Assembly (NCBI GenBank): GCA_045535075.1
Contig: JAZSKX010000017.1
Location: 64,001-128,000 of the forward strand
Length of the DNA: 64,000 nt
Origin: Candidatus Spyradenecus sp.
GTDB lineage: Bacteria; Verrucomicrobiota; Verrucomicrobiia; Opitutales; UBA953
Reading direction: 5' to 3'
Part shown: piece after piece, positions 1 through 64,000 of the stretch
Layout of the letters: each line of letters starts with the position of its first letter
How positions within the stretch are numbered: position 1 is the first letter of the stretch
Notes under the pieces: generated by a model
What the model was told of the DNA's origin: nothing
Database searches by the model: none
The model's input: only the letters and a program-made list of their open reading frames with translations
Position numbers and translations under genes: made by a program

Positions 1-463
1 AATCCGGCGCCGGTTTGCAGTTGGCAACGTCTTCCGACGTGATGACCACCGGGAAAAGCTCCGCCACGCCGATAGTTTTTAAAATCTCGTGAACCTCCTT
101 ACGAAAACCTCCCGAGGCGACAGCGAGCTTTGCGCCGCGCGCGGCAAGTTTTCTCGCGTAGGCACAAACATCCGGAATCGGCTCCACTTCACAAATATGC
201 TCGGCAAGATACGCGTGATAATCCGGAAGCAGTTTTTCGATGCTGATTTTAAAACCGTAACGATTTTCCAAAATCGCAATCGTGTCCGCCGTGTTCATGC
301 CGCCAAGCGTGCAGAAAAAATCCCACGGGAACGCCCAGTTCTCGCCGACTTGGCGGCGCACGGAATATTCCCACGCAGCGTGGTGCAACTTCATCGATGC
401 GGCAAGCGTGCCGTCGCAATCAAAAACGTACGCAGAAAAAGGTTCTTTAAATTCGGAACTCAT
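1..463 (-). CDS. HAD-family phosphatase (YqaB/beta-phosphoglucomutase-like), partial; runs off the window start
   Basis: Not in the ORF track; manual translation from ATG at 463 gives MSSEFKEPFSAYVFDCDGTLAASMKLHHAAW...AVASGG...TSEDVANCKPAPD, containing HAD motif I (DxDGT), motif II (AS) and KPxP. Confidence 0.85.
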   Translation of the reverse strand, partial: MSSEFKEPFSAYVFDCDGTLAASMKLHHAAWEYSVRRQVGENWAFPWDFFCTLGGMNTADTIAILENRYGFKISIEKLLPDYHAYLAEHICEVEPIPDVCAYARKLAARGAKLAVASGGFRKEVHEILKTIGVAELFPVVITSEDVANCKPAPD

Positions 464-547
464 TGGAGAATGAATTTACGACGTTCCCGTTTCCGGCGCA
501 AGCTCGCCCTCCAAAGCCGGCGGTCTTGCAGGGGCATTTTTATTCGC

Positions 548-574
548 AAAAAAAGGCTTCCGTCGGGAAGCCTT
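548..574 (-). terminator. Rho-independent terminator after tRNA-Thr
   Basis: Minus strand reads AAGGCTTCC-CGAC-GGAAGCCTT followed by a T-run. Confidence 0.8.
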
Positions 575-579
575 AAAAA

Positions 580-655
580 TGGAGCCACTTGTCAGACTTG
601 AACTGACGACCCTCTCATTACGAATGAGATGCTCTACCAACTGAGCTAAAGTGGC
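580..655 (-). tRNA. tRNA-Thr(CGT)
   Basis: Reverse complement folds as a cloverleaf: GCCACTT acceptor stem, TCTCA-TTCGTAA-TGAGA anticodon arm, TTCAAGT T-loop, encoded CCA. Confidence 0.95.
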
Positions 656-840
656 TAATGGAAGAATGAAGCTTCAACTCTACACTTTTTATTTTTTTGT
701 GCAAGCAAAAATTAAAAATCCCGATTTACCGAATTTCACGGGAACGGGGATTGTTACGGACTTTCTTTTAAAAAAAATTCAAACCTCGGGCTGTGATTGC
801 ATTTGCGCCGCGGAAAGATTTCGCGCACAATGGTCGCGAA

Positions 841-10800: not shown

Positions 10801-10832
10801 AAAAAAACGTTCCCGCCGATTTGACGGGAACG
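10801..10832 (-). terminator. Terminator formed by an inverted motif pair (after ptsH)
   Basis: A7-CGTTCCCG-ccgatttga-CGGGAACG. Confidence 0.75.
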
Positions 10833-11199: not shown

Positions 11200-11241
11200 A
11201 AAAAAAATGCGTTCCCGCAAACCGAAGCCTACGGGAACGCA
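11200..11241 (-). terminator. Terminator formed by an inverted motif pair (after autotransporter)
   Basis: A-run-TGCGTTCCCG...CGGGAACGCA, about 10 bp past the stop codon. Confidence 0.75.
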
Positions 11242-11250: not shown

Positions 11251-14200
11251 TTAGAAGCGATAGCGGAAGCCGAGATTTGCGCGATGAGCGACTTCGGATT
11301 CCGTTCCGACTCGGAACTCGTAATTGAGATAGAGCGACGTTTTGGCATCCAAGTCAAACGAAACACTCGGAGCAACGGAAAGCGAAGTTCCGGAAAGCGC
11401 ACGAGCATCCGTCGTAAACGTGGAGTTGGCGAGGGACGATTCGATTTCCACCTCATCATCAAGGAATTCATGAATGAGGGAAAGATCCAACCCGACACGC
11501 GTCGCATGACCTCCGAGTTCAAACACGCAGTTCAATGCGGCACCGAGGCGCGCTTGGAGACTGAGAGCGTCAAACGAATCCGTTGCCAATGCCGTTCCGG
11601 AATCAATTGCGGAAGAAGAGTTTTCTTCAAACTTATCAACGCGATAATAGGAAAGCGCCAATCCGGCGTGCGGGAAGAAATCGAGATGTGCGGTTTCGCC
11701 CCATTCCGCAACCGTGCAGGCTCCGACGAAATCAGCGAAGATCCCGCCGTGCCATCCGTCCGTATCTCCGTCGTTTTTCCCGTAGAGCGTGCGGCGTTCC
11801 ACATCATAACTTGCGTATCCGATTTGTACGCCCGTGTTCAACGAAAGATAATCGTTAATCAGATGGCCGGCAAAGAACGTTGCACGAATATCGTCAGACT
11901 CGATTTCGCCGCCGTTCCCGTGAATATCCGCCTTCCCGTGATCATACGCAACGGCAAACCCGGCAGTTGTCTCCTTGTTAAACTTGATGTCCGCTCCCGC
12001 AAGCGCCCCGTAAGTGTTGTAGTCGTAGACCATGGAATCGGAATCGCTCCCGCCGTCTACGGTAGAACCTTGCGCTTGAGCAAAAAATTCCACATCGCGC
12101 TCATAAACCCAAACTGCGCTGTTGGAATCATAAAGACGTTGTTCGAGACGACCCGAAACGGCACGAATGTCCGACGTGAATCCGGCATGCGGCATCGACA
12201 CCATCGATGCATAGGCAAGCGGCGAAAGGTTCGCAATCGCGTCGCCCAATTGTGAAAGGGAAGTTTTATTCAGAGCATCGGCGATTGCCGCTTCTTCCGA
12301 CGTCAGTGTTGATTTCAGATAACCGTTTTCCGGAGTCGCCCAGTCGTTAAGAATGCCGACCAGCTCATCAAGACCGTCGTGCAAATCGGCTCCCGTTTTA
12401 CGGAAGTCAGACTGCGCAACATAGACCTTAAGGTTTCCGTCCGCCAAGCCGGCTTCGTCAATGTAAAGCGGCTCGCCGGAAGACGTAAGGCTGAAGCTGT
12501 TTTTGTCGATTGCGGTCGCCGTTCCCGTGCCCACGTATTCGAAAACGGACAAGGCTTTCCCGCGTTCGTTTTGGCTCATCGCAACATCGAGAGTAACCTG
12601 CCCGCGAACCGCGACATTGCCGGAATAACGGAGTGCTTCCCCCGCAGAAATATCAAGCTTGTAGGTGGAACCGTCTTCGAAATCGACGCTCGCGTTTTCT
12701 GCGGTCAGGACGATCCCGCCGCTGAGGACGGCGCCGTCTTTAACCAAAATTCCGGAGCTCGCCAGCTTCGTTCCCGAAGCGAACGCAAGCGTCCCTTGAG
12801 AAACAACGGTTTTTCCGGTGTAGCTTTGCGTTGCCGAATCAAGAAGCAAAGCACCGCTTCCGGTCTTTTCGAGATTTCCCGCACCGCCGATATCCTTCGA
12901 ATAACGCGCATAAGTGTAGGCGCCCGAATCCGCCGCCAACGTTAGCGTTCCTCCGGCGTTAGTCGCCAAGGCGATTCCTTTATTCGAGAAATCGTAAACC
13001 CCTCGCGAAGAAGTCGCCTTCGTCAAAATCGATCCGATCCAATCGTTGCCGACAAGATTTAAGGTCAGCCCCGCACCGTTGCGATTCGCAAGCGTCACAA
13101 GGACATCATCTGCAATTTGGATATTCGGGAAGAGGGAACCAAACGCGGTTTCCGACAAATCAATCATTCCTTCGAGAGCAATTCCGACCTCGGAAACGCC
13201 GTCCGCAACAGAAATCTTTCCGCCGTAAACCTGTCCGGCGACATCTCCGACAAGTCCGAGCGCACTTCCGTTGGTCGCAAGCGTAATATCGGCAGTATTT
13301 GCCAGCCCGACACTCAACGCGCCGGATTCGGAACCCGCGCCGACCCGGAATGTCGTTCCCGTAGCAAGCGTCGCATCCTTCGTTCCGTCAGAAAGAGCAA
13401 GTTCGCCGCTTCCCGCAACCGTAATTACGGCATTTTCCGCCGTATCAAGGGTTCCCGTGAAAACAACGTTGCGGTTCGGAGCAAGCGAAATCGTCGTTGC
13501 CGATGCGTCAAACGCAAGCGTTCCCGTTCCGGAAACACCGCCGATTGCGTTAATTCCCGCGCCCAAGCTGAGCTTCGAAGCCGTTCCGAGATCAAAAGTT
13601 CCGGTAAATCCGGCAATCGAAGCTCCGGAAGAAACCGTCGTAGCACCTCCGCCCAAGGCAAGCGTTCCCGCACCGGAGAGCCCGTTTTTAACCGTCGCCA
13701 AATCGAGTCCGTTCTTTGCCGGATCCACTTCAAACGTCGCTCCCGCCGCAATCGTAATTGAGTCGGGCGTATTGTTGCTGAGATTAACTCCGTTAACCGA
13801 AAGAGTTCCGGATTCAACGGAAAGCGCAACGCCGTTAAAATCAACCTCTTTCCCGAGGATTGCAACACCGACGCCTTTCTTAATCAAATCCGTTCCCGCA
13901 GCAGCCGAAAGCTCGAAATTCAACAATTTTTCGAGAGCAACACCGTTTTCGTCAGCTCCGATATCAAGAATCAAATCGCCTTCTTTAAGCGCAACAACGC
14001 CTTCGAAATCGACATCCGAAAGAGTCAACGCTCCGGAGCCGATCTTTTCGATTGTTCCCGTTCCCGTGATTGCTCCCGCGAACGCGCTGTCGCCGGCACC
14101 GGAAACCGTCAATGTCCCGTCCACGTCAAAAACCGTTCCCGCAGACATTGTAACCTGCTTGAACTGATAATTTGCGCCGGCGGCAATCGAAACCGTTCCC

Positions 14201-17200
14201 GCTTCAACAAGGAAAGAATCCACGTTCCAGTCCCCGTTCGTACGAGTAAGCGACAAGGTTCCGGCTCCGCTTTTCACAAAGCTTGCCTTTGCATCGGCAG
14301 TCGCGGAGAGAATGTTTCCGCCAAATGCGGTCTCGGTATTCTCTGCAATATCGAACCGGAGCACCGCCCCGTCGCCGAGAATCGTTTCCACGGATTCACT
14401 GCCGCCGCGGAAATCGCAATTTTCGTTAAACCGCAATTCCATTTCCCCGGCTTCCACGACAAATGCATATTCATTTTCGTAGTGAGCCAATGCCTCGCCT
14501 TGAGTAAAGATAAGCTTCCCTTCGCCGGATTTAACCAAGCGCGAAGCCGTTCCCGCAAGCGGAGCGCCACCGGAAATCTTCCCGTTGAACGTCAGCTCTT
14601 TTTCCGCACCGACGTCCAGCGTAAATGCCGTTCCTTCGTTCAAATAAACGTTAACGCTTTCGGCAAAAGCCTTACGTTCTCCGGCGTTGACCACCAAAGA
14701 TCCTTTCCCGACTACAATTTCGCCGGTGAAATCCGCTCCCGCGGCTTGTCCCAAAGCAGAGCCGATAACCAATGTCCCTTCGCCGTCCTTGAGAATCGTT
14801 CCCGCGCCGGAAATAACGCCGTCGCCTGCGATTTCAAAAACACACGGTTCCGTTCCTTCCGAAACGACGGTAAACAGCGCTCCCGCGTTGACATAAACGC
14901 CGGAGGTACGGCGAATCGCATCCCAATCGACACGCAATTCTCCGCCCTGAACAAGCGTTGCTCCGGTATAATCGCTCTTTCCGGTAAGGCGCAAGGTTTC
15001 GCTTCCGATCTTTTTCAAGACCACACCGTCGCCGGTAATCGTTCCCGCGAAGGCAGGCAATTCCCCGTCGGCATAGCGAACGCCGATAATCTTTTCGAAT
15101 TCCGCGTACTTCGCGTCATCCGTGGCGGCTTTGCGAATTGCTTCGACGTTGAAGCCGTACAAGCCGCTAAGGATATTAACGTTTTCCGTCGTAAGGCGGA
15201 ATTTATAATCGTCGACAAAAAGAGAGATAAATCCGTAAAGCGTCTGAGACTGGGTTACCTGTTCCGCCGTCAGACCGTTCCCGTAAGTAGAGAGATATTT
15301 GATGACGTTCGCATCCAAGAGGTTCCGATAACTTGCACGCGTCAGCGTCACGGCACCGGTTTTCGCTTCGTAAGCGAAGAGCGTCGCCGGATTCGCCTCG
15401 TAGCGTTCCGCGTAAGTAAGCAAATCGTTGAGTTCCCGTGCGGTCCAGCCGGTCGGGTTTGAGGCGACAAAGCTACGAATCGTCTTGAGGTCGAGAATCT
15501 GATTGAACGCACGATCCAAGCGGGTTTCGTTGATTCCGAAGCCGCTCCAAACGGACGAATTCAGCATGGCGCCGAACGTTCCCGAGTCAATTGTCGCATA
15601 AATATGCGAAAACGTATTCGCCAACTTCGCCGGATCTTTGAGATAGTTAATTGTATCTTGAGCGGTAATCGTGTCACGCGAAGCAACTCCGGAAGCGTCT
15701 TCCCGCATGTAATCCGGACGAAGCGCGCCGAGCGAAGCAATCGTCTCTGCCGCCTCCGAACCGGCAAATCCGCCGACTGAACTCAAGTCCAAACCGAAAC
15801 TTCCAAGGTAGGAATCCGCATCCGCCGTAGCAAAGAAGTAGCCGTCGTTGGCAATTTTCTTCGCCCCGGAATCGTAATATTCACGAATTCCGTTAACGGT
15901 TTTCGCCAACGCTTCGTCCGTCAATCCGATTGTCAGCGTTGAGCCGCCGGAGAGGGCGACCGTCGAATTTTCGGATCCGATGAGCGCCGCAAGGTGTTGG
16001 CTTTTTTCGGAAGAAAGGCGTCCGGAGTTTGCTAAAACCGTTCCCGAAGATGACAAAAGTGCACCTTCGTCGCCGAGTCCGATCGCTCCCGAGAGTCCGA
16101 TTGTCGCCAATGAATGCGAAGACGACTTGAGCGACAATCCGCGCGTTCCGGCTTTAACTAAACTTCCGGTTCCGGAAATCGTTCCCGCGAATTCACCCGC
16201 TCCCGTCAAAACGGCTACCGCATCGTAATGAGAATTGTCAGAGAAGACAAGAGACGTACTCGCGTCGCCGACGAGTGTCGGGAGAATCTGGTACGACTGC
16301 ACCGTAATACGTGCATTTTCTTCCAATGTAATTGACGACGCGTTTGAGAATACGCTTGCCAACTCATCGTCTCCGAATTTCCCGAGTGTCAGCGTCATGC
16401 CGTCAGCAACGGTAACAACGCCGTAAAAATCTTCTTGAGCCGCTGCGACTTGAATGTTCCCGCGATACGGATTGATATCGTCATACGATTCCGCGCGGTA
16501 ATACCATGTTGTCGAATTAACGAGAAACTCGCGCCCGTCGTTGATGAGACCTCCGTGTTTAACGCCGTTTTCGTCGACATATGAAGAGTCATATGTGAAA
16601 AGCAAAGTCGAAAGTCCGGCGCCTTCCAAGCGCGCATTCAAGGATTCTGTACGGTTGGAAATCACCCGCAGCGTTCCTTCGTTTCCGACATAGATTCTTC
16701 CGGCTCCGAGCGAGCCGACATCCGCAAGCCATGCGCCTTCGTAGATGAAGAGACGATTGATGACTGCGTCCACTTCACCTTCATAGATGGCAGTTGTATT
16801 TGCAAATGTTCCCTTCCCGGTTTTGATAATGTAGCCGTCATTGGCTTCGGCATTTTTTACATCCGTCGAATCCGTTGTAAAAAAGCGGCCGCAGAAAAAT
16901 CCGTCGCGATCCTCCTGCTGATTGATAATCATCGTTGCTCCGCTACGGACAAAAACCGATGTTTCGTATGCAGTCTCAACGACATTGCCTCCCGGAGTAA
17001 AATACGGAGTCAGTTCATAGAAACCTTCGCCGCCTTCCAAATATTCGTTGTGAAGCGTTTCGCGCTCAAAGAAAAGCGACTGCACATTGTTCAACACTTG
17101 TGTGCCGTAAATTGAAACCGCCGTCGCACTATGTCTCCCGACATCGACGTAGCGACCGCGGGTTTCCCAAACGGCACCGTCAACTTGACCGAACTCGGCA

Positions 17201-18486
17201 ATTTCAGCGAAATACGCCGAAAATTGAACCGCCGTTGCCGTCTCCAAAACATTGTCTACGACATTTTTCCCCGTAGAATCCGAGCCGATATTCGTATCCG
17301 TCAGCAAGAATACGTCAGCCAAGACTCCGGAGACAAGCATCTCGCCTTCGTCCGTTGTCTGGCGAACATTCCCCGTCAGATCGTAAGACGCGGCAAGATT
17401 GTGGACATAATTAAGAACAGAAGCTTCACTGCTCGGATTTAAATCGAGCGACGGCACGGAAGATGCGTTTTCGGAGAGCGTCGCAAATTCGGCACGATTC
17501 GTAATAGAAACAATCCGATTTCCCGCAGGCACTCCCGCTTGGGTCGGCGCACCTACGAAATAGACACGTCCCGTTCCCGCGAGCTTTCCGATCTTGGATT
17601 CACCGTCCCACCCGAAGTCGCGCCCGGTCGCAGCGTCGGTTGTCGCGATTATGATACGGGAAGACGATGCGCGATCGCCGCCCAACTCAATTGTGGTATT
17701 AATATCCGCCTTGACGTTCTGAAGGAAATTCAATGCGCGAACTCCGACCGCTTCCTCCGTCGGTCCGGTGTTCCCGTCGCCCAAATCAAAGCCTTTTGAA
17801 AGCAGATTTTTCTCGGCGGAGGCGAAAGAAACAACGGAAGTATCCTTCAAAACCAAATTGGAAATCCCGACATAGCCCAATTCGTCTGCAACCGGCCAAT
17901 CTGCGCCCGAAATTGCAAATTCAGCACGCGGTCTCCCGTAGGCAACGTACTGAGAAAGGTAACCCGACGCGATCAGCGTCGTTCCGCCGGAAACCGTCAA
18001 CTGTCCGGAAAATGCAGTATTTCTGACATCAACGTTCCCGCGATTATCAATTCCGACGAGCGAATGAGTGTAAGCCTGTTCGTAAACACCGCGTGCCTCA
18101 CCGTTCGTCGTCAGATACGTTCCCGAGTAATAATTGATATCCTTAAATCCCTGGTACTCCAAGGTTCCGCCGCCGGTAACCTCAATCTTTCCGCCGGTCC
18201 CGCCGATATCATAGTATCCCGTCCGGAAGTAATCAGCGCCCAAGGTTCGGGGAACGCCGCCTTCGGAGGCACTGGAAGAAGAACCGTAGAAATGTCCTTT
18301 TACCGCATGCGACTCGGAAATTTCCAGGGTGAGCGTTCCGTTCTCCGTAACGTAGTAGTCTTCCGTCAATTGCTTATCGACGGAAACCTTCATATTGCGA
18401 TCAACATTGATTGTCGCTGCGGAGGCGAGACAAGCACCGCCGAGGAAAATCGCCGCAGAGAGGAAAAGGTTTTTGGAAAATTTCAT
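11251..18486 (-). CDS. Large autotransporter (2411 aa) with passenger-associated repeats
   Basis: Signal peptide, many L-x-K-x-G-x-G-x-L-x-L repeats, C-terminal barrel ending LGFRYRF. Confidence 0.9.
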   Translation of the reverse strand: MKFSKNLFLSAAIFLGGACLASAATINVDRNMKVSVDKQLTEDYYVTENGTLTLEISESHAVKGHFYGSSSSASEGGVPRTLGADYFRTGYYDIGGTGGKIEVTGGGTLEYQGFKDINYYSGTYLTTNGEARGVYEQAYTHSLVGIDNRGNVDVRNTAFSGQLTVSGGTTLIASGYLSQYVAYGRPRAEFAISGADWPVADELGYVGISNLVLKDTSVVSFASAEKNLLSKGFDLGDGNTGPTEEAVGVRALNFLQNVKADINTTIELGGDRASSSRIIIATTDAATGRDFGWDGESKIGKLAGTGRVYFVGAPTQAGVPAGNRIVSITNRAEFATLSENASSVPSLDLNPSSEASVLNYVHNLAASYDLTGNVRQTTDEGEMLVSGVLADVFLLTDTNIGSDSTGKNVVDNVLETATAVQFSAYFAEIAEFGQVDGAVWETRGRYVDVGRHSATAVSIYGTQVLNNVQSLFFERETLHNEYLEGGEGFYELTPYFTPGGNVVETAYETSVFVRSGATMIINQQEDRDGFFCGRFFTTDSTDVKNAEANDGYIIKTGKGTFANTTAIYEGEVDAVINRLFIYEGAWLADVGSLGAGRIYVGNEGTLRVISNRTESLNARLEGAGLSTLLFTYDSSYVDENGVKHGGLINDGREFLVNSTTWYYRAESYDDINPYRGNIQVAAAQEDFYGVVTVADGMTLTLGKFGDDELASVFSNASSITLEENARITVQSYQILPTLVGDASTSLVFSDNSHYDAVAVLTGAGEFAGTISGTGSLVKAGTRGLSLKSSSHSLATIGLSGAIGLGDEGALLSSSGTVLANSGRLSSEKSQHLAALIGSENSTVALSGGSTLTIGLTDEALAKTVNGIREYYDSGAKKIANDGYFFATADADSYLGSFGLDLSSVGGFAGSEAAETIASLGALRPDYMREDASGVASRDTITAQDTINYLKDPAKLANTFSHIYATIDSGTFGAMLNSSVWSGFGINETRLDRAFNQILDLKTIRSFVASNPTGWTARELNDLLTYAERYEANPATLFAYEAKTGAVTLTRASYRNLLDANVIKYLSTYGNGLTAEQVTQSQTLYGFISLFVDDYKFRLTTENVNILSGLYGFNVEAIRKAATDDAKYAEFEKIIGVRYADGELPAFAGTITGDGVVLKKIGSETLRLTGKSDYTGATLVQGGELRVDWDAIRRTSGVYVNAGALFTVVSEGTEPCVFEIAGDGVISGAGTILKDGEGTLVIGSALGQAAGADFTGEIVVGKGSLVVNAGERKAFAESVNVYLNEGTAFTLDVGAEKELTFNGKISGGAPLAGTASRLVKSGEGKLIFTQGEALAHYENEYAFVVEAGEMELRFNENCDFRGGSESVETILGDGAVLRFDIAENTETAFGGNILSATADAKASFVKSGAGTLSLTRTNGDWNVDSFLVEAGTVSIAAGANYQFKQVTMSAGTVFDVDGTLTVSGAGDSAFAGAITGTGTIEKIGSGALTLSDVDFEGVVALKEGDLILDIGADENGVALEKLLNFELSAAAGTDLIKKGVGVAILGKEVDFNGVALSVESGTLSVNGVNLSNNTPDSITIAAGATFEVDPAKNGLDLATVKNGLSGAGTLALGGGATTVSSGASIAGFTGTFDLGTASKLSLGAGINAIGGVSGTGTLAFDASATTISLAPNRNVVFTGTLDTAENAVITVAGSGELALSDGTKDATLATGTTFRVGAGSESGALSVGLANTADITLATNGSALGLVGDVAGQVYGGKISVADGVSEVGIALEGMIDLSETAFGSLFPNIQIADDVLVTLANRNGAGLTLNLVGNDWIGSILTKATSSRGVYDFSNKGIALATNAGGTLTLAADSGAYTYARYSKDIGGAGNLEKTGSGALLLDSATQSYTGKTVVSQGTLAFASGTKLASSGILVKDGAVLSGGIVLTAENASVDFEDGSTYKLDISAGEALRYSGNVAVRGQVTLDVAMSQNERGKALSVFEYVGTGTATAIDKNSFSLTSSGEPLYIDEAGLADGNLKVYVAQSDFRKTGADLHDGLDELVGILNDWATPENGYLKSTLTSEEAAIADALNKTSLSQLGDAIANLSPLAYASMVSMPHAGFTSDIRAVSGRLEQRLYDSNSAVWVYERDVEFFAQAQGSTVDGGSDSDSMVYDYNTYGALAGADIKFNKETTAGFAVAYDHGKADIHGNGGEIESDDIRATFFAGHLINDYLSLNTGVQIGYASYDVERRTLYGKNDGDTDGWHGGIFADFVGACTVAEWGETAHLDFFPHAGLALSYYRVDKFEENSSSAIDSGTALATDSFDALSLQARLGAALNCVFELGGHATRVGLDLSLIHEFLDDEVEIESSLANSTFTTDARALSGTSLSVAPSVSFDLDAKTSLYLNYEFRVGTESEVAHRANLGFRYRF

Positions 18487-18511
18487 AGAATTAAGTCTTT
18501 CCTAAAGAAGA

Positions 18512-21500
18512 TTAGAAGCAGTGGCGGAAGCCCGCGTTGAAATTGTGATTAATCTGTTCGTCCGTGCCGTATTGAAGCATGTAGCCCAAAGAAAGCGAGT
18601 CGCGTTCCGAAAGATCCACCGTCATCGAAGGCGCGATTGAGAATGCGTCCGACGAACCGATTGCCGCCGAAACATCAAACGCCGTGTCGCGGTATTGCTT
18701 AAACCGAGCATCGATGTCGGCGTCATCATCAACGAATTCATGGTGATAGGCGAGATCCAGGGAAACGCGAGCCTCCCAATCGCCGAGCGGGAACTTCCAG
18801 TCAAACGTAGCGCCGAGGCGCCCGCGAACGCTGTGAGCGTCGAAGGAATCGACGTCCAATCCGGCGATTCCGGACTCGTCAAACGATCCGACTTTCGAGA
18901 AGAGATACGAGAGCCCGATATACGGAGTAACCACGACAAGCTTGTTTTTGTCCTTGCTCAGCATGAAGCCTTTGCCGAGCGTTACCGCCGCACCGGCATT
19001 CCAACCGTCAGTATCGCCTTCCGATTTACCGACAAGCGTATTGCGTTCAATGTCGTAGCTGTTGAGTCCGAGGTGAAGCGCCCCGTCGAGGAAAATACTT
19101 CCGTCCCCAAGCAATCCGCTTGCAAAAGCCGTTGCCCGGAAGCCGTCGGAACGAATTTTCCCTCCGCTATTGTGCAAACTTGCACTCCCGTAATCGTAGC
19201 CCAGCGTAAATCCGTAAAGAGAGAAATCGTCCGGCTTAACGTCAAATCCGACGAGCGCTCCGTAGGAATTGAAATCAAAGTTCGCAGCGTCGCTTCCCGA
19301 GCCGTTTTCGACGACGCTCGTCTGAGCACGCGCGAAAAATTCAAGCCCGTTGTCATAAAGCTCATTCGTCGAATCGTAGCGACGATGCGATGCTCGCTCG
19401 GCAATTGCACGCCAATCATTTTCAAAGGAATTGCGCGACATCGCAATCATCGATGCATAGCCGATCGGAGAAAGCTTTGCGATTTCATCTGCAAGAGCGG
19501 ATGCCGAAACCTGATTCAGGGCAACGCCGATCGGGCCCCAGTTTGCCAGCAATTCGGACTCGAAAATAATTCCCGTGGCAATGCCGGCATCAACGCCGCT
19601 CATTTCATCAAGAACGTCCGTAAAGCTTCCCGCCAATCCGTCTCTCAAACCGCCGACTTCCGCTAAGGATGTACCGACCGCATATGCGGAAATCACGCCG
19701 GTGTCGCTTTGAGAAAGCATCAGCGAGGTTGCGCCGTTGGTCAGCTTCCCGTAGCCGAAAAGCGCAGTCAGTTCTTCCTTGGAATAGGTCGTTCCCGAGA
19801 GCGAATTGAAAAGAACCAACTCGTTCCCGCGCGTCGCTGCCGCCGTTCCCGTGAGGCGAATTACGCCGTTGTTTTCAAAGGTTCCCGCGTAATCAATAGA
19901 ATCTCCGTTGTTTACATCGAGAACAACCGTGCCGTCGTTTACAAAATTTCCGCCGACCGTCGCGTCTGCCGTTGTTGCCGCCGACGTTGTCTTGGCGATG
20001 GCGGGAACTTTGACTCCGGTCAGCTTAACGCCGCCTTTCATTGTTCCGCCGTTTTCGACTTTCAAAATTGAAGTCGCCAGAGAAACATTTTTGAATTCGG
20101 CTGTTGTCCCGTTCTCGACAGTCGTCGTTCCCGTGTAAGTCTGATTCGCCGAAACCGAAGTCGTCTTGGACCCGCGGAACGCAACATTGCCGGTACCGGA
20201 AATTGAGCGATCGAGCACTTCGTTCGCTTCTCCTGCGCGGATAACGAAAGTTCCCGCAGAATTTTTGGCATCACTCGCCAAAGTCGTAAACCCGACGGCA
20301 GAATCAATTGCACTCAACCCGGAAACAATCAATTCTCCCTGGTCCACACCCAAAACCAAACGCGTGTTTGCAGAAGTCGTTGCTGCAGCCCAAAGCGCGT
20401 CCGAAGCAAAAAGAAGGCTCTTCCCGCCGTCCGCGACTCCGTCAAAAGCAAGAGAGGAAGTCCCGTTCCCGCTTTTAATCAGCGAAACGGTTCCGACCTT
20501 TGCTCCTTCATCCATGCGCACTTCGACATCGGAAAGGCGATTGCTACGATCCGAATTCGTCGTGAAATAGATTGTTGCATCGTTCTTTACGCGCAAGCCT
20601 CCGGTCGGCGTGTTGTTCAACTTCGAAGCTTCCGCACTGACCTGAACCTTACCGTTATCGACAAGGATCGTTCCCGTCGCCTGGACATCTTCAATGTTCA
20701 AGCAACCTTTTCCGGAAACAACGACATTGGCATTAAAGCTTCCTCCGATCGTCGTGTCATGATTTTGAGCAAGGAAAACCTGTTTTGACGTTTCGAGACC
20801 GCCGGTTGTTTGCAATGATGCCAGTTTGACTCCGGTTCCCGTCACGACGATTTTAAAGCTTCCGGCATCCAAAACGCCGTTAAAGTACCTACCGCCGTCA
20901 ACCGCCGTCGAAGTAAGCATCGACGTTCCCGTCAATTCAAGCGTTTCGGAAGAGGAGCTCGCAGTTTCAAGCAACGCAATCGTTCCGGAGCCTTCGATTT
21001 TCGAAAGATCCGGGGTTACGTCGTAGGCGCACTCGAGGGAAAGCGTTGCTCCCGCGACCACAACCGCCGAGTTAAATTTGAACGCATCCGAGCCTTCAAG
21101 ACGAAGTTCTCCTTCCAAAACCTGCAAATCCGAGCCGAGCCAAGAAGCGGCATTGGACGATTCAATCGTAAGGCTTCCCGTGCCGATTTTTCCGAGCTTT
21201 CGGTTTCCTGCGGGAACGCTCGCGTCGAACAACACTTTCCCGTCCAAGCGGGCGTCCGCAGAATCCGTTGCGAAAATCACGCGGGCATTTTCTCCCGTAA
21301 GCGCGACATCGTGATCAAGAATTGTCGTAATCAGCGTTGCCGAATCCGAGACGGAAAGCGCAACCTGAGACTCAAGCTCTCCGTTGAAAACGAAGGTTCC
21401 CGTTCCTCCGACTTTGAATTCCGTTGCCGTCGCATTCGTCCCGTACACGCCGACGGAACCCGTATATGCGCCAAACGCGGAATAATCCGTCGAAACAACA

Positions 21501-24500
21501 CGGTTTACGGTTGTCGCGTAAGATGCAGCGTTATTTGTAAAGGCAACGCCGTTCGTGTTTTTGAGTGCGAGGGTCAGCGCCGTCGGAGCATCCGTGTTAA
21601 TGAAAACATTTCCGCCTCCGGCGAGCTCTTTAAATGCCTGATTCGTCGCGATGTAAAGAGAACCGTTCCCGCCGATATTTGCCGACGCAGAATCGGAAAG
21701 CAGGTTTTCCGTAGCCAAGTAAAGATTGCCTTCCGTAACCGACAGAGTTCCGACGAAATCCTTTCCGGCGCTCCCCGTGTTTCGGAGAGTCAAATCTCCC
21801 GTTCCCGATTTTTCGATCGTTCCCGCCCCGGCAAACGCGCGATCAACCGTCGCCGCCTTCGTCGCACTTAATTCAAGTGTCGCGCCCGCAGCCACGGAAA
21901 CGGATTTTCCGGCTCCGACAAAATCGGCATCGACCAAAGCGAGCTCACCGGCTTCAACAGCGAGATTTCCGCTCAAAGTCGTCGAGCCGTTCAAAGTCAA
22001 AACACCCGTTCCCGCCTTAACTAAATTCCCTTTGTTATCCATCGTTCCCGCCCACGTAACGACACCATCCGCTTGATTGAGCGTCAAAGTCGAATTCGCA
22101 TTGCTGACGAAAATATCGCCCTGCGCTTTTACGTCGGACTCCGAGCGGGAATACAGGCTCATGGTCAAATTACCGCCGGCGACAATGGTTTTTCCGAAAT
22201 AATTTACTTCCGAACCGAAAGTGAGCGAGCCTTCGCCTTTCTTTTCGAAATTTCCGTCGCCCGTTAGAGCCTTATCAAACGTGTATTCCTTAGAAGCGTC
22301 CGTTCCCGTGTTAACGGAAAGCGTTGCTCCCGCCGCGACAGAGATCCCGTCGGCAAACGTTCCTTCGGTGTAGGCATCGACATCCATTTCGACTGCGCCG
22401 CCGAGGACTTTGAGCGATTTCGCCTCAACCGTTCCCGCGATGGTAACGCGTTCGTCTCCGACCTTAATAATATTGTTTGCCGCCAGTCTTCCGTTAAAGG
22501 AAAGACGGTCGATCATTTCATTCAAGTCGGCAGAATCGGTTCCCGCATTCTGCCCAAGCAACTTAACGTAGAGGCGCGTCACGTCGGCAACCGTTACGGT
22601 GTTCGGTTCCACGTCACGACCGAAAAGCTCTTTCAACGCTTTGCGTTCCGACGAGCCGAACTGTTCGTTTTTGAAGTAAGCCACTAACGCTTCTGCCTGA
22701 TTTTCCGTGAGCCCAGAGCCCCGGAAATCCAAAATCGGCTTGAGATAAGTTTTAACAAGCTTATCGGAATCGTTCCCGCTCGTGCTCGGGTAGGTTTGCA
22801 GAATTCTGTCGCTGTTGCCGAGATCGTCGGTTACGATTACGCCGAGCGCGTTTCCGACGGACGCCTGATATGCGGAATTAAGGACGGAGCGGCGGGAAGC
22901 GTCTGCTCCCAACTGCAAATCTCCGTTTTCAAGCGAGAGTTCCGTATTGGTTCCGCCGACGAGAGAAACCAGATTCTGCGCTCCCGCAAACGTTACCGTC
23001 GTTCCCGCATTCATCCAAACCATGGACGAATTCCAAAGCGATTGCGATTTTGTCGCATTGATTGCGCCTTCCTCAATCACCGTCGCGCCCATGTAAGAAA
23101 TCATGGAGCCGCCGTCGAGAGTTAAAGTCTTTGCTCCGGTTTTTACGAGATTCCCGGTCCCTGTAATTGCTCCGGAGAATCGGCTGTATTCCAGCTCGTC
23201 CCCATTCCCGGTTTTGCCCGAGATTCCAAGAACGTCGTCCGTCGCATCAAGGGTTGTACAGACGGTCAGAGTCGAGCGTCCCAAATCCACCTTGGAATAA
23301 TAATCACCCGTGAGATTATTGATTTTTTGGTTGGTGTTATTAAACGAAAGAGTCGAAATCTGCGAACCGGCATAAAGGTCCGTTTCCGTTCCGACTTTCC
23401 CCGCAAGAACGACGGCTTTTGCATTGCCGACGGACCCGCCCGAGAATTCAACGCTGTCCGTGTAGGAAAGACGTTCCAAATCGGCACCGGAAATTACCTG
23501 TTCTTTGCCGGCTGCATCCGTGTAGTAATAAACGCGTTCCCCGAGAGCATTTTTGTAGTACGCAACGTTATCGAAGGTTTCTCCGAGCTCGGTCGTGTAA
23601 GTTCCGAATCCGTTCACGTCATAATAGCGATAATTGCCTTCGGCGTCCGTGTAGCCCGCCAAATCCTGTGCGGTGAGAACGAGCGTCAGCCCGCGTTCCA
23701 CAAAAACTTCGCCCGTAATAAAACGCTGTTCGACACCGAGCTCAATCGTTCCCGGGTTGCGGCTATCGCTGACGTCAATCGGCCCGCCCAAAGTGTCGAT
23801 AAGAGCAAACGTACTAAAATGAACATCCTGCAGGTTAATGCGTGTTTTCAACGTTTCCGTTGCATTTTCGACAAGCGTAAAGTTCACGCCGTCCGCCGCA
23901 TAAAGCCCGGGTTCTTTCACCCAGTTTGCCGCATTGTATGCCTCGCCTTTGGTCCAGTCGTAGCTTCCCGGATCCAAATCGATTGCCGTAATGTTGACAA
24001 CGACATTGCCGGCTTCAAGCAATGCGAGCTTTTCATAATTTGCGCCTTCAAGCATCAGCGCAAGATCCCCGGCTCCGTACTTAACGACGGTTCCGCCCTT
24101 AATAAGCGAGCCGTCCGCATTTACGCCGGCGGCATCTCCGGCCTCGTTCACACCGCAAATCGTTCCTTTGTAAATCCCGCCCTTGCCGGCTTCCTGATAA
24201 AGCGCAAGCACGGAACCTTCTTTAACCGCCAAGTAAGAACCGCTTCCCGTTCCCGCGACAATCGGAGCATCTTTGTCTGCGGAATCCGCGGCGTTTTGGA
24301 CTGCGCTCGCCGCAGAAAGATTCGTATCGAGCGCTCCGACTCCGTTCGCAAACATCGCTTGGAAATTGCGAATCGCCTCGTTGTTGTTCACGACGAGCGT
24401 TCCCGCAGAAGAATCCGTGAAAAATGCCTCTTTGTAATAAGTAACCTGAACTGTGTTTTGATCTCGGCGTTCCGTGCGGTCAAACAGAACACGCACATCC

Positions 24501-25585
24501 GCACCCAAGCGCGACGCTTCCGAAAGGGAAGACGTTACCGCACCGTTCCCGCTGGAGTTTTGGGGATCGATCGTTCCCGCAATCGTCAGCGAACCGGCAT
24601 TCCAAAGCGTACGCCCGTATTCCAAATCACCGTAGCCGTACTTTGCCAACGCTCCCGTGACATCCACGGAAATCGCATCATTGACGGCGGCATTCAAAAC
24701 AACGCTTCCGCCTGCGACGAAGAACTTCCCGCTGAAATCGCGGTTCTCGCTCAGCATCGTAAGCTTGCCTTCGCCGGTTTTATAAATATCCGCATCCCCG
24801 ATGATATAACCGACGGATCCTCCGTCCTGCAAAGTCCCGTTCGGATTTGTGCTATCCCACGCATCAATATGAATATTGACGTGATAAATATCGTCTGCCG
24901 ACTTCGTCGTGTTCCCGTTGTTGCGCCCGACATCCAAAAATGAGCCTGCCTGGTCGTTATTTTCCCCGGCTCGGAGATTGTGGAGGAAAACAAAAACATT
25001 TTTCCCCGCCATCGGTTTTTCCCCGCCGTTCGAAAAATTGTAAAGAAAGCGGCTTTGCCCGACATTTAAATAGGCTCCGTTCCAAAGCGTGATCTTGTCA
25101 ACACCCGCCATCTCGCCTTCCCGCGGCAATCCGGCAACCATGCTGTTCACCTGAGGACCATAGTCTTTCCACAAATTCACATAGCCGCTGAGCAAAAGCG
25201 TTCCGGATCGGACGACCAGCTCTCCCGCATTCCAAGAGGGATATTGGATATCCTTTGGCCACGTTTCTACGATTGAACCGGCTTCACTTACGCTAATTGA
25301 GGCCTTCTCGGAGAGATTGGACTGATAAACGGCATAAACATCCGTTCCGTCCGAACGCCCGAAAATTTCAAGCGTTCCGTCGCCGGATTTGACTAGCGTT
25401 CCCGAGCCGGAGAAATTGGAGGAAATCGTCAAATTGGTATCGTTATCAACCTCGATTGTTCGATCTGCGTAGTTGGTAAAATTGGTTCCGTCCGCCCGGT
25501 CGTACGGTGCTGCGCCGGAAAGAACGGCACCGGCAATGAGACCCGCGGCCAATAAAGTTGTTTTCGTAAGAATCGGGAAACGCAT
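18512..25585 (-). CDS. Large autotransporter (2357 aa) with passenger-associated repeats
   Basis: Signal peptide, LVKSGDGTL-type repeats, C-terminal barrel ending AGFRHCF; clearly paralogous to 11251..18486. Confidence 0.9.
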   Translation of the reverse strand: MRFPILTKTTLLAAGLIAGAVLSGAAPYDRADGTNFTNYADRTIEVDNDTNLTISSNFSGSGTLVKSGDGTLEIFGRSDGTDVYAVYQSNLSEKASISVSEAGSIVETWPKDIQYPSWNAGELVVRSGTLLLSGYVNLWKDYGPQVNSMVAGLPREGEMAGVDKITLWNGAYLNVGQSRFLYNFSNGGEKPMAGKNVFVFLHNLRAGENNDQAGSFLDVGRNNGNTTKSADDIYHVNIHIDAWDSTNPNGTLQDGGSVGYIIGDADIYKTGEGKLTMLSENRDFSGKFFVAGGSVVLNAAVNDAISVDVTGALAKYGYGDLEYGRTLWNAGSLTIAGTIDPQNSSGNGAVTSSLSEASRLGADVRVLFDRTERRDQNTVQVTYYKEAFFTDSSAGTLVVNNNEAIRNFQAMFANGVGALDTNLSAASAVQNAADSADKDAPIVAGTGSGSYLAVKEGSVLALYQEAGKGGIYKGTICGVNEAGDAAGVNADGSLIKGGTVVKYGAGDLALMLEGANYEKLALLEAGNVVVNITAIDLDPGSYDWTKGEAYNAANWVKEPGLYAADGVNFTLVENATETLKTRINLQDVHFSTFALIDTLGGPIDVSDSRNPGTIELGVEQRFITGEVFVERGLTLVLTAQDLAGYTDAEGNYRYYDVNGFGTYTTELGETFDNVAYYKNALGERVYYYTDAAGKEQVISGADLERLSYTDSVEFSGGSVGNAKAVVLAGKVGTETDLYAGSQISTLSFNNTNQKINNLTGDYYSKVDLGRSTLTVCTTLDATDDVLGISGKTGNGDELEYSRFSGAITGTGNLVKTGAKTLTLDGGSMISYMGATVIEEGAINATKSQSLWNSSMVWMNAGTTVTFAGAQNLVSLVGGTNTELSLENGDLQLGADASRRSVLNSAYQASVGNALGVIVTDDLGNSDRILQTYPSTSGNDSDKLVKTYLKPILDFRGSGLTENQAEALVAYFKNEQFGSSERKALKELFGRDVEPNTVTVADVTRLYVKLLGQNAGTDSADLNEMIDRLSFNGRLAANNIIKVGDERVTIAGTVEAKSLKVLGGAVEMDVDAYTEGTFADGISVAAGATLSVNTGTDASKEYTFDKALTGDGNFEKKGEGSLTFGSEVNYFGKTIVAGGNLTMSLYSRSESDVKAQGDIFVSNANSTLTLNQADGVVTWAGTMDNKGNLVKAGTGVLTLNGSTTLSGNLAVEAGELALVDADFVGAGKSVSVAAGATLELSATKAATVDRAFAGAGTIEKSGTGDLTLRNTGSAGKDFVGTLSVTEGNLYLATENLLSDSASANIGGNGSLYIATNQAFKELAGGGNVFINTDAPTALTLALKNTNGVAFTNNAASYATTVNRVVSTDYSAFGAYTGSVGVYGTNATATEFKVGGTGTFVFNGELESQVALSVSDSATLITTILDHDVALTGENARVIFATDSADARLDGKVLFDASVPAGNRKLGKIGTGSLTIESSNAASWLGSDLQVLEGELRLEGSDAFKFNSAVVVAGATLSLECAYDVTPDLSKIEGSGTIALLETASSSSETLELTGTSMLTSTAVDGGRYFNGVLDAGSFKIVVTGTGVKLASLQTTGGLETSKQVFLAQNHDTTIGGSFNANVVVSGKGCLNIEDVQATGTILVDNGKVQVSAEASKLNNTPTGGLRVKNDATIYFTTNSDRSNRLSDVEVRMDEGAKVGTVSLIKSGNGTSSLAFDGVADGGKSLLFASDALWAAATTSANTRLVLGVDQGELIVSGLSAIDSAVGFTTLASDAKNSAGTFVIRAGEANEVLDRSISGTGNVAFRGSKTTSVSANQTYTGTTTVENGTTAEFKNVSLATSILKVENGGTMKGGVKLTGVKVPAIAKTTSAATTADATVGGNFVNDGTVVLDVNNGDSIDYAGTFENNGVIRLTGTAAATRGNELVLFNSLSGTTYSKEELTALFGYGKLTNGATSLMLSQSDTGVISAYAVGTSLAEVGGLRDGLAGSFTDVLDEMSGVDAGIATGIIFESELLANWGPIGVALNQVSASALADEIAKLSPIGYASMIAMSRNSFENDWRAIAERASHRRYDSTNELYDNGLEFFARAQTSVVENGSGSDAANFDFNSYGALVGFDVKPDDFSLYGFTLGYDYGSASLHNSGGKIRSDGFRATAFASGLLGDGSIFLDGALHLGLNSYDIERNTLVGKSEGDTDGWNAGAAVTLGKGFMLSKDKNKLVVVTPYIGLSYLFSKVGSFDESGIAGLDVDSFDAHSVRGRLGATFDWKFPLGDWEARVSLDLAYHHEFVDDDADIDARFKQYRDTAFDVSAAIGSSDAFSIAPSMTVDLSERDSLSLGYMLQYGTDEQINHNFNAGFRHCF

Positions 25586-35042: not shown

Positions 35043-35090
35043 CGCGGGAACGCTTCTGCACAAAAATTTGTTTGCCAAAGCGTTCCCGCG
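35043..35090. repeat. Inverted motif pair between glyA and the pilin-like gene
   Basis: CGCGGGAACGCTT...AAGCGTTCCCGCG, 13-bp perfect arms. Confidence 0.8.
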
Positions 35091-35150
35091 GTGCATTATT
35101 TCCTACAATTATCACAAACCCATTTAACCCCATTAACTCAGCAAAAGCTT

Positions 35151-35886: not shown

Positions 35887-35920
35887 ACGTTCCCGCAAAA
35901 TTCTGCGGGAACGTTTTTTT
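35887..35920 (+). terminator. Terminator formed by an inverted motif pair
   Basis: ACGTTCCCGCA-aaattc-TGCGGGAACGT followed by a T-run. Confidence 0.88.
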
Positions 35921-40522: not shown

Positions 40523-40558
40523 GCGTTCCCGTGATTGATTTCACGGGAACGCTTTTTT
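40523..40558 (+). terminator. Terminator formed by an inverted motif pair
   Basis: GCGTTCCCGTGA-ttgatt-TCACGGGAACGC-TTTTTT. Confidence 0.88.
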
Positions 40559-51061: not shown

Positions 51062-52360
51062 TTAAACGCGTTCCATCAGCGGAACAAAGTGCCGTTCGTT
51101 TTCGCCGATGTAAACCTGGCGCGGGCGATAAATTTTCCCGCCCGGGCGCTCCGCCATTTCCTTCCATTGCGCGATCCATCCGGGCATACGTCCCATCGCA
51201 AAAATAACGGGAAACATATTCACGGGAATGCCGAGTGCACGCAGAATGATGCCGCTATAGAAATCCACGTTCGGGTAAAGATTGCGCGCTTTGAAATATT
51301 CGTCGTTAAGAGCGATGTTTTCGAGGCGGTGAGCGATTTTCAAAAGCGGATCGTCCATACCGAGCGCGTCAAAGATTTTCAGGCATTGCTTGTGGAGAAT
51401 TTTTGCGCGCGGATCGTAATTTTTGTAAACGCGATGCCCGAATCCCATGAGGCGCACTTCGCCGGATTTGGCTCGTTGGACAAACTTAGATCCGTCGTCG
51501 CCACTTTCGCTGATTTCCGTAAGCATTTCGATAACCGCCTGATTCGCGCCGCCGTGCATCGGACCCCAAAGCGCACAGACGCCCGCGGAAACGGAGGCGA
51601 AGAGATTTGCGCCGCCGGAACCGACCATGCGCACCGTCGAGGTCGAGCAGTTTTGTTCGTGATCGATGTGCAAGAGCAAAAGTGTATCGAGGGCTTTTGC
51701 GACGTCGGGGTGAATCGGCGAATCTTCCCCCGGGTAGGAAAACATCATATGCAGGAAGTTTTCGCAGTAACTGTATCCGCGTTTCGGATACGTTACGGGA
51801 AGCCCGTTGCGGTAGCGGTAGCCCATTGCGGCGAGCGCGCGAACTTTGGAAATAAGGACGGTCGTCGTGCGGTCGAAGTTTTCCAAGTCCTGCTTGCGAT
51901 TATTCGACGAGAGTTCGGGATAATAGCACCCGAGAGCGTTGAGCATCGCGGAAAGTCCCGCCATCGGGTGTGCCGTCATCGGAAATCCGGCGACCATCGT
52001 CCGCAGCGCTTCGTGAATTCCCGCGTTCATGAGAATACGGTTGCGAAAATCTTCAAGATCGCGAGCCGTCGGCAGTTCGCCGTAAATGACGAGATACGCG
52101 CTTTCGATAAAATTGGAGCGAGCGGCGAGCTCCTCAATCGGATAGCCGCGATAGCGAAGAATTCCTTTTTCTCCGTCGATAAAAGTGATTGCGCTCTCGC
52201 ATGAGCCGGTGTTCCCGTAGCCTTCATCGTAAGTGATAAAGCCTGTTTCCGCGCGTAATTTTCGAATATCAACCGCGTGCTCGCCCTCCGTTCCGATAAT
52301 AACCGGCGCAATATAACCGCGATTTCCGAATCTGACCTTGATTTCTGATTTGTTCACCAT
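51062..52360 (-). CDS. gltA: Citrate synthase
   Basis: [44 protein letters not shown]. Confidence 0.97.
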
Positions 52361-62248: not shown

Positions 62249-62277
62249 CGTTCCCGCAGGAAGGTCCTACGGGAACG
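62249..62277. terminator. Hairpin from an inverted motif pair after the PEP-CTERM gene
   Basis: CGTTCCCGCAGGA-agg-TCCTACGGGAACG. Confidence 0.7.
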
Positions 62278-63271: not shown

Positions 63272-63416
63272 GTTTTGTTCAAACGCGTTGTTTAAACTGT
63301 GAGAAAGAGCATCGCATAAAATTTATTTCTCGTCAACTAAAAATTAAAAAATATTTTTACATTAAAATTGTTGACAGTTTCGCGTATTTCAGTTCTGATG
63401 AGAAATACATTTTTGA

Positions 63417-63491
63417 TGCCCAGTAGCTCAGCGGAAGAGCAGTTGACTGTTAATCAATTGGTCGTAGGTTCGATCCCTACCTGGGCAGCCA
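63417..63491 (+). tRNA. tRNA-Asn(GTT)
   Basis: TGCCCAG acceptor stem, GTTGA-CTGTTAA-TCAAT anticodon arm, TTCGATC T-loop, encoded CCA. Confidence 0.95.
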
Positions 63492-63496
63492 CTTTT

Positions 63497-63521
63497 AAGC
63501 CTGCGTTTTGCAGGCTTTTTT
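63497..63521 (+). terminator. Terminator after tRNA-Asn
   Basis: AAGCCTGC-gtttt-GCAGGCTT followed by a T-run. Confidence 0.82.
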
Positions 63522-63575
63522 GTTTGCGATTTGCCTTTAAGCATTTCCCTTCTCGGCGTAGCGTTAACGGGTAGT

Positions 63576-64000
63576 ATGAATAGCCAAGATTTTAGAATTG
63601 TTGTGCTTTGCGGCGCGCGTTCGCCGGAGCGCGAAGTGTCGATTCGCTCGGGAACGGCGTGCGCGGAAGCTCTGTGCGAAAATTTTCCGGAGATTGAATT
63701 GCGAGTTCTCGAAGAAAACACGCTCCCTGCGGATTTAAATCCGCAGCGCGATGTGATTTTTCCGGTAATTCACGGCGACTACGGAGAAGACGGAGAGATT
63801 CAGCGAGATTTGGAAGCGCGCGGATTCGCCTATGCCGGATGCGATTCCTCAGCGAGCGAAATTTGTATTGATAAATCCATTACAAAAAAAGTGATGCGGG
63901 AACACGGCGTTCCCGTGACGGACGATATCTCATTTTCGGCAAATGCACGGCCGGACGCGGAATCCGTTGTTGCGAGCCTCGGAGAATCACTTGTCGTAAA
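63576..64000 (+). CDS. ddl: D-alanine--D-alanine ligase, partial; runs off the window end
   Basis: Manual translation: MNSQDFRIVVLCGARSPEREVSIRSG...FPVIHGDYGEDGEIQ...CIDK. Confidence 0.9.
   Translation, partial: MNSQDFRIVVLCGARSPEREVSIRSGTACAEALCENFPEIELRVLEENTLPADLNPQRDVIFPVIHGDYGEDGEIQRDLEARGFAYAGCDSSASEICIDKSITKKVMREHGVPVTDDISFSANARPDAESVVASLGESLVV

Follow-up and report, generated by a model that had tools for sequence, protein, structure and literature searches.

A nine-base word, RCGGGAACG, is dispersed on both strands through the 64,000 nucleotides analyzed here (the window), which are positions 64,001 to 128,000 of contig C16 in an assembly of Candidatus Spyradenecus sp. (the source genome, G000; 1.95 Mb, 52% GC, 18 contigs, 99.45% complete), and our data confirm that it is enriched far beyond what composition accounts for. 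The word is confined to one genus of the Opitutales and is actively preserved at its sites in most of that genus, two lineages having lost this preservation, and the source genome carries most of the genes for DNA uptake. An initial annotation made from the window alone had proposed that the word belongs to an uptake system. The best-fitting reading, to which we give a probability of roughly 45%, is that RCGGGAACG is a DNA uptake sequence (DUS), a ‘self’ tag of a species group in a phylum new to such systems.

The hand count that gave rise to this proposal was accurate: bases 1–6400 contain exactly 28 copies of the core CGGGAAC/GTTCCCG. The whole window holds 240, against 15.83 ± 4.05 in 100 dinucleotide shuffles, none of which reached 240 (maximum 25). 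The usual form was also described correctly, RCGGGAACG accounting for 161 of the 187 window copies of the octamer CGGGAACG (106 with G and 55 with A). Across the source genome CGGGAACG occurs 5159 times, or once per 378 bp and again usually as RCGGGAACG, in a genome where 8-mers have a median count of 34 and words one mismatch away from it number 26 to 857, which makes the latter 6–200 times rarer than the exact word. The motif family heads the k-mer list at each k from 6 to 12, with GCGGGAACG (3244 copies) and ACGGGAACG (1266 copies) among the longer forms. A logo built on GGGAA confines the information to R-C-G-G-G-A-A-C-G and a weak following C, and information falls to about zero beyond these 9–10 positions. 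Because the flanks are flat, we are dealing with a word and not with a repeat element, which as a unit of the repetitive extragenic palindromic (REP) or miniature inverted-repeat transposable element (MITE) type would have conserved flanks. Direct reading shows that CGGGAACG differs from its own reverse complement and is therefore non-palindromic.

Context counts in the source genome come from our rough gene model, based on open reading frames and codon scores (1460 genes, 87.6% coding), which picked the wrong strand at least once (it took an antisense open reading frame at window 35133–35870 over a prepilin-type gene that we call P1), so that counts by frame and context are approximate. By this model 4292 copies are coding (2574–2578 sense, 1718–1720 antisense) and 867 are intergenic, the density being higher between genes (3.54/kb) than within them (2.52/kb). 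All six classes of frame and orientation are occupied, with sense nCG-GGA-ACG (1459) and antisense nnC-GTT-CCC-G (1163) dominant, and these genome-wide counts bear out the earlier statement that the word occurs on both strands, in all three frames and between genes. Its density is even over contigs of at least 16 kb (2.0–3.2/kb).

One explanation is an artifact of codon, dipeptide or base composition, or the copying of a small mobile element. The word is indeed over-used in certain frames (Ala-Gly-Thr, Gly-Asn, Val-Pro) and dense in repetitive autotransporter genes. However, shuffling synonymous codons within genes, which keeps both protein and codon usage (n=20), yields only 299 ± 14 sense copies (maximum 325) and 174 ± 14 antisense copies (maximum 195), leaving an enrichment of about 9-fold under the codon-preserving control that the initial annotation had named. 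Observed copies exceed Markov expectations of orders 1–4 (183–1401 copies) by 28-fold at order 1 and still by 3.7-fold at order 4, ratios near 1 at maximal order being uninformative because the sub-words are themselves built from the motif, and they stand about 86-fold above uniform expectation. The excess is stronger between genes, the same word recurs in relatives whose loci range from 46 to 66% GC and is absent from sister genera, and flat flanks exclude a mobile element. Refuted on each of these points, the artifact explanation retains virtually no credence.

Within the window, genes differ in their load as first described. The word is sparse in conserved enzymes, with one copy in gltA (0.8/kb) and two in glyA (1.6/kb), dense in three autotransporter genes (2.3, 3.5 and 4.4 copies/kb) and absent from all four tRNA genes (580–655, 50930–51006, 63194–63271 and 63417–63491). 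The autotransporters are consecutive on the minus strand (6385–25585) and encode 1471, 2411 and 2357 amino acids; in the first, the passenger is of the subtilase S8 and P-domain kind, and PATR repeats are found in the other two.

The two strands of the source genome share the copies almost equally (2527 forward, 2632 reverse), and the locally G-rich strand carries 54.8% of 4919 copies (440 versus 394 for intergenic copies), which amounts to almost no replication polarity when the direction of replication is taken from local GC skew only. Chi and the FtsK-orienting polar sequences (KOPS) are strongly co-oriented with replication and enriched only a few-fold, and we reject identity with either on polarity. 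Spacing between copies is close to random or exponential (coefficient of variation, CV, 1.10; median 262 versus 259 expected), as judged from the gap distribution alone with no formal periodicity analysis; the deviations are too few gaps shorter than 10 bp and too many long ones, 16 exceeding 3.2 kb where 1 is expected. A repeat resembling the highly iterated palindrome HIP1 of cyanobacteria had been listed as an alternative, but the word is neither palindromic nor periodically spaced and is therefore not HIP1-like in form. The 13 longest motif-free gaps are mostly low in GC (39–46% in 9 of the 13), and genes for restriction-modification (an MmeI-family enzyme, a C5 methylase, HsdM) lie within or next to several of them. 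Low-GC (39–43%) motif-free islands with or beside such genes lie at C2:15779–22107, C12:44633–48943, C12:72737–77438 and C9:58071–67770, and they are probably recently acquired defense islands.

Copies also pair in a preferred arrangement. At distances of 15–24 bp, CGTTCCCG-N-CGGGAACG occurs 142 times in the source genome, against 14 for the opposite arrangement. Of the 158 inverted pairs with the form CGTTCCCG-N2-20-CGGGAACG, most (140) follow the 3' end of a gene, 56 of them between convergent genes and 84 in tandem contexts; 1 is divergent and 17 are coding. Their typical flanks read AAAAAG-stem-loop-stem-CTTTTT, so in form they are terminator-like, resembling intrinsic and often bidirectional terminators. 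A conserved module of about 25 bases (ATGAATTAATATATCAC...) has six copies (C5:51180, 53147, 63915, 106099 and 153758, and C9:57114), each flanked on one side by a motif-pair hairpin and on the other by the 3' end of an opposite-strand small gene whose product has an Arg/Ala-rich C-terminus; the module looks like the shared 3' region of a paralogous gene family and, as a guess, could possibly encode a C-terminal sorting signal.

Compared through its glyA neighborhood with species-representative genomes, the source organism groups with gut Opitutales. These relatives come from chicken, ruminant and human gut assemblies recorded under the titles ‘Candidatus Spyradosoma’, ‘Candidatus Spyradenecus’ or ‘Opitutales bacterium’. 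Among 8-mers, CGGGAACG ranks first in 14 loci of the genus and in each of the 15 species described below as motif-rich. When 121 genomes of the family were surveyed, every one of the 19 members of the genus carried it, in 552–7777 copies and at densities up to one per 220 bp, and none of the 102 genomes of four sister genera exceeded a reversed-word control; in 12 other families of the order it is at background. The check for the word in related Opitutales, proposed at the outset, is thereby positive for the whole genus. This genus is deep, identity between the source genome and its most distant members dropping to 41% for the secretin and to 32–35% for ComEC, and the word is identical throughout.

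The genus is not uniform in copy number. Four genomes are motif-poor, G001, G002 and G013 with about 1350–1385 copies each and G014 with 552, whereas the other 15 are motif-rich (2580–4503 copies per Mb). In a tree of ComM and DprA (716 columns), the source genome is sister to the trio G001/G002/G013 (support 100/100), this group is nested in a clade with the rich G004 and G018 (99/98), and G014 falls on a separate branch, a placement which implies that motif density collapsed twice. We compared site conservation in 6–50 kb of orthologous DNA per genome aligned to the source genome, with 8-mers located 16–40 bp away as controls; these samples are of modest size, each genome contributing between a few dozen and about 120 sites, and the trio does not amount to three independent cases. 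Between rich genomes at about 73% identity, motif sites of the source genome are exact in 46 of 99 cases in G004 and 43 of 74 in G018, compared with 9% of control 8-mers. The poor trio, though closer to the source genome, keeps 13–18% of motif sites versus 11–12% of controls, and G014 keeps 6 of 44 versus 11%. The copies that do persist in aligned blocks of poor genomes mostly (61–86%) align to a source-genome motif, and of 15 source-genome sites shared with the outgroup G004 and covered in G001, 12 are lost in G001. It follows that the word is actively preserved in most of the genus and that preservation was switched off twice, with neutral decay thereafter.

A methyltransferase or restriction-modification system that enriches the word through methylation-coupled selection or repair, in the manner proposed for HIP1, should follow this split. 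The MmeI family is a class that reads asymmetric words of 6–8 bp, and the source genome encodes an MmeI-family type IIG enzyme, three HsdM, one C5 methylase and two tandem D12 methylases, with no N6_N4 methylase; this screen of the source genome was based on regular expressions and may miss some enzymes, and genus-wide distribution was examined for the MmeI-type, D12 and C5 families, not for HsdM. The MmeI-like gene occurs in 10 of 19 genomes, including the poor G001 and G014, and was not found in the rich G007, G016, G008, G009, G006, G003 and G012. D12 methylases are essentially restricted to the source genome, with a close homologue only as a pseudogene in G007, and C5 methylases occur in 10 of 19 genomes, including the poor G014, G002 and G001, and were not found in 8 rich ones. 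In the source genome, a low-GC gap free of the motif encloses the C5 gene, and the edges of such gaps are where the MmeI-like gene and one HsdM gene are found; type I enzymes, moreover, read bipartite sites. We therefore reject linkage for the MmeI-type, D12, C5 and N6_N4 families, none of which follows the rich/poor split, and the methyltransferase alternative raised with the initial annotation becomes very improbable, even though a report on HIP1 ties that repeat to both methylases and transformation (PMC13756078).

The uptake reading is suggested first by the sequence itself, since the word shares the hallmarks of DUS and of the uptake signal sequences (USS) of Pasteurellaceae: enrichment, both strands, all frames, clade specificity, terminator pairs, absence from tRNAs and scarcity in DNA that appears recently acquired. 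It is suggested also by the gene content. The source genome encodes a ComEC of 570 amino acids with the Competence domain only, DprA, ComM, a cluster running from PilM to a PilQ-type secretin, PilC, two PilB-like ATPases and one PilT-like ATPase, and seven prepilin-type genes, four of them in an operon next to RecJ and RuvX and one, in the window, just after glyA. All 19 genomes of the genus have ComEC, secretin, DprA, ComM, two PilB-like ATPases and one PilT-like ATPase and at least seven prepilins. From the competence genes that the initial annotation had listed, comEC, a pilQ-type secretin and dprA are present and comEA is the one that did not turn up.

Under the uptake reading, a surface receptor, probably a part of the type IV pilus, would preferentially bind DNA carrying the word, ComEC would import the bound DNA, and DprA, ComM and RecA would recombine it into the chromosome. 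Word-bearing alleles would be transmitted more often between cells, a molecular drive that would write the word wherever it is tolerated (variable surface proteins, permissive frames, intergenic DNA and terminator stems) and would also keep existing copies from decay. We infer that biased uptake drives this process and that a component of the pilus acts as the reader.

Several observations weigh against this reading. Neisseria and Haemophilus require ComEA for uptake, and a search of the source genome did not find it: PF12836 and TIGR00426 match only an 805-amino-acid Tex-like frame, and nothing ComEA-like lies upstream of comEC. The presence of the other genes is weak evidence, since ComEC, DprA and ComM are common in bacteria without known transformation; ComEC and DprA match 10–11 of 14 control genomes and the ComM model matches all 14. 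The poor genomes retain ComEC, the secretin, the four-pilin operon, the full prepilin count, DprA, ComM and the three ATPases, all without internal stops (in G013 the break in ComM is simply the end of a contig), and a relative-rate test (three-taxon, 15 genes available) shows no acceleration of ComEC or pilins on the poor branch. No dialect word appeared in samples of the four sister genera (25–60 kb each) or of the poor genomes (43–100 kb each), samples which are small. Only 316 of 5159 copies stand in inverted pairs, the density of one per 378 bp (up to one per 220 bp in relatives) is several times that of USS or DUS, and spacing is close to random (CV 1.10). Regarding terminators, the abstract of a recent preprint locates about half of DUS/USS, and more than 90% of those in inverted repeats, in terminators (10.1101/2025.10.24.684340). 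The original proposal of an uptake system is therefore supported in part: the sequence hallmarks and most of the machinery are there, ComEA and dialects were not found, and the decaying lineages keep every uptake gene tested.

Several explanations of the decay were tried and set aside. Loss of uptake genes in the poor lineages is rejected because every tested gene is present. Relaxed constraint on the poor branch is rejected as well for the 15 genes available, ComEC being fast on both branches (0.281 for the source genome, 0.223 for the poor branch) and the pilins behaving like their neighbors. ComEC evolves fast genus-wide and on both of these branches, with 63% identity between the source genome and the sister trio compared with 91% for the secretin. 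No replacement word was found in the 43–100 kb sampled from each poor genome, and dialects, the presence of which in relatives had been raised at the outset, were likewise not found in the sampled genomes. One apparent dialect, CGGGTACG/CACGGGTA, enriched in 60 kb of genome G031 of sister genus g14, was rejected as the product of a repetitive giant gene, nearly all copies being on one strand, in frame and within the first 11 kb of one locus. In this locus (L092), the first 11 kb are occupied by the giant gene with about 60 in-frame, single-strand CGGGTA copies that mimicked a dialect in k-mer statistics.

The prepilins were also compared as candidate readers. None of the seven stands out, with 46–57% identity to the most distant members compared and none lost in rich or poor genomes. 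P1 belongs to a protein class that would supply candidate motif receptors. Its identity to the source genome is 55% in the poor G014 versus 70–71% in the rich G008/G009, although the secretin and the four further pilins compared put G014 nearer to the source genome than G008/G009. The idea that P1 is a lost receptor was nevertheless rejected and is a weak lead only, tree path lengths being comparable and the P1 of the trio ordinary at 88%. A second secretin with four extra prepilins occurs in G001, G002, G013, G014, G004, G018 and G012, not in the source genome or most other members; it is probably a type II secretion system and does not follow motif density, being found in poor genomes and in the rich G004, G018 and G012. 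Overall, the rich/poor contrast gives the uptake hypothesis no positive support and does not contradict it. Possible causes of the decay are a point mutation in the receptor, loss of a regulator or an unrecognized receptor.

In a scan of viral contigs for the hairpin form, most of the 80 fetched loci were chance matches (median 0.25/kb). One contig, L171 (IMG/VR, 14.6 kb), is a prophage fragment in a close relative, whose genes for large terminase, portal, head closure, baseplate and tail carry the word at about 1.7/kb. The flank resembling host DNA has 81% identity to the source genome, in which this prophage is missing, and the adjacent host gene shows 85% protein identity to C5:190419–192116. 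As a control, the temperate Haemophilus phage HP1 contains 17 copies of the USS core in 32.4 kb, compared with 0.28 expected. The prophage alone could favor an intracellular mechanism, but the HP1 result indicates that known uptake systems also show phage enrichment. Two other contigs, the AT-rich phages L205 and L224 (IMG/VR, GC 32–33%), contain a tandem (CGGGAA)n element 8–12 times in conserved surroundings (...aaCGGGAACGGGAAC...), at intervals of about 80–970 bases and, apart from one copy per contig, always on the same strand; we rejected these as instances of the motif, since the repeat is unrelated, has a regulatory look and just happens to include the word.

Such an intracellular mechanism would be a genus-specific DNA-binding, nicking or repair activity acting on all resident DNA independently of uptake, which would either protect exact copies or turn near-matches into the word through biased gene conversion or mismatch correction. 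This activity would accommodate sites kept 5–6 fold over their neighbors, a preservation that stops abruptly in two lineages retaining every tested uptake gene, the enriched prophage, a density above what uptake should require, and the missing ComEA. Very-short-patch repair and similar biased repair produce modest enrichment only, which the roughly 86-fold enrichment here exceeds, no candidate enzyme was identified, HP1 shows that phage enrichment occurs in a true uptake system, and we know of no precedent for a reader of this kind acting on a contiguous asymmetric 9-mer. We regard intracellular maintenance as rather unlikely on this balance. We are similarly doubtful of the proposition that the word may be kept by a dedicated but dispensable sequence-specific system, neither methylation nor the tested uptake genes, which would be a drive that writes the genome and whose reader was lost twice while pilus, ComEC, DprA and ComM genes stayed intact. 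If true, the contrast of four decaying with fifteen maintaining genomes would point to DNA-reading machinery of a new kind.

A third possibility is that the word is the binding site of an abundant genus-specific chromosomal protein involved in nucleoid organization, or a Chi-like ‘self’ signal against a nuclease or defense system. The exact word is conserved over species with 33–41% identity in fast-evolving proteins, is absent from foreign islands, and is present in a prophage that a protective mark would benefit. Against this stand the lack of replication polarity (54.8%), two losses without replacement, which make the word dispensable, and a placement that follows coding tolerance with no spacing rule (CV 1.10), and we know of no abundant chromosomal protein or protective reader of this word. 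We judge a binding or protective site distinctly unlikely.

Table 1. Coordinates of the word, its inverted pairs and the genes discussed, in window positions.
Feature	Position	Strand	Remarks
Dispersed word copies	1..64000	both	Genic and intergenic; 240 CGGGAAC, 187 CGGGAACG, 161 RCGGGAACG
Inverted pair CGTTCCCG-N9-CGGGAACG	10808..10832	-	Directly past 3' end of HPr gene (10849-11220, -), T-run on - strand; terminator-like hairpin
Inverted pair	11210..11239	-	Directly past 3' end of 2411-aa autotransporter gene (11251-18486, -); terminator-like hairpin
Two giant autotransporter genes	11251..25585	-	Top motif load in window: 25 and 31 copies of the 7-mer, all but three sense
glyA, conserved enzyme	33788..35035	+	2 copies; anchor for fetching related genomes
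Prepilin-type gene P1, directly downstream of glyA	34944..35864	+	N-terminal methylation motif at residues 75-99 of open frame; type IV pilin N-terminal helix
Inverted pair then TTTTTTT	35888..35913	+	Directly past 3' end of P1; terminator-like hairpin
Inverted pair then CTTTTTT	40524..40551	+	Between convergent genes 39589-40482 (+) and 40572-41825 (-); terminator-like hairpin
gltA, conserved enzyme	51062..52360	-	1 copy
Inverted pair	62249..62277	-	Past 3' end of gene 62310-62750 (-)

Sequence-specific uptake is established in only two proteobacterial families, and a system in the Verrucomicrobiota, if true, would show that self-tags evolve repeatedly. To our knowledge, the word is denser than any described uptake sequence. 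The hosts are abundant, poorly known gut bacteria of livestock, birds and people, in which an uptake sequence would imply frequent within-genus gene exchange in the gut, and the word placed on donor DNA would provide a handle for genetics. Whatever the mechanism, the genus is a natural experiment in which 15 species maintain the word and two lineages let it decay; this contrast makes the mechanism directly testable, and a comparison of pan-genomes between rich and decaying members should name the responsible gene. The word is in addition a near-perfect k-mer signature for binning or detecting the genus and for spotting foreign DNA inside its genomes. Our literature search, with subscription papers and supplements outside its reach, found no description of the word or of competence in the genus, and the abstract of a recent preprint lists uptake sequences only in Neisseriaceae and Pasteurellaceae (10.1101/2025.10.24.684340).

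Comparison with described words places RCGGGAACG at different distances from each. Like Chi and KOPS, it contains a G-rich asymmetric octamer that is over-represented in the core genome; unlike them, it shows only 54.8% of copies on the G-rich strand and 3.7–28 times Markov expectations (orders 4 to 1). With cyanobacterial HIP1 (GCGATCGC) it shares an octamer, a comparable density of one per few hundred bases, conservation at orthologous sites, a phylogenetically widespread occurrence and a debated function, but the word here is asymmetric, its spacing is near-random and no methylase among the families screened tracks it. HIP1, according to the report cited above, is palindromic, quasi-periodic, a site of the conserved methylases DmtA and DmtC, and a proposed broad uptake sequence (PMC13756078).

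The closest parallels are with the two established uptake systems. The word differs from the DUS of Neisseriaceae, whose receptor is the minor pilin ComP, in being one word genus-wide, with no dialects and none in four sister genera, and in that no ComP-like receptor was identified; it agrees with DUS in being a clade-wide exact word that forms terminator pairs, is scarce in acquired islands and occurs together with a type IV pilus and several minor prepilins. It differs from the USS of Pasteurellaceae in phylum and in the word itself, in lacking AT-rich flanking segments, in the ComEA that was not found and in a density several times that of host USS. The likeness to USS extends, however, to a non-palindromic core of only 9 bases that recurs exactly thousands of times, on both strands and in permissive frames, to inverted terminator pairs, to sharing across a clade and to carriage by temperate phage, HP1 in that system and a prophage with 1.7 copies/kb in this one.

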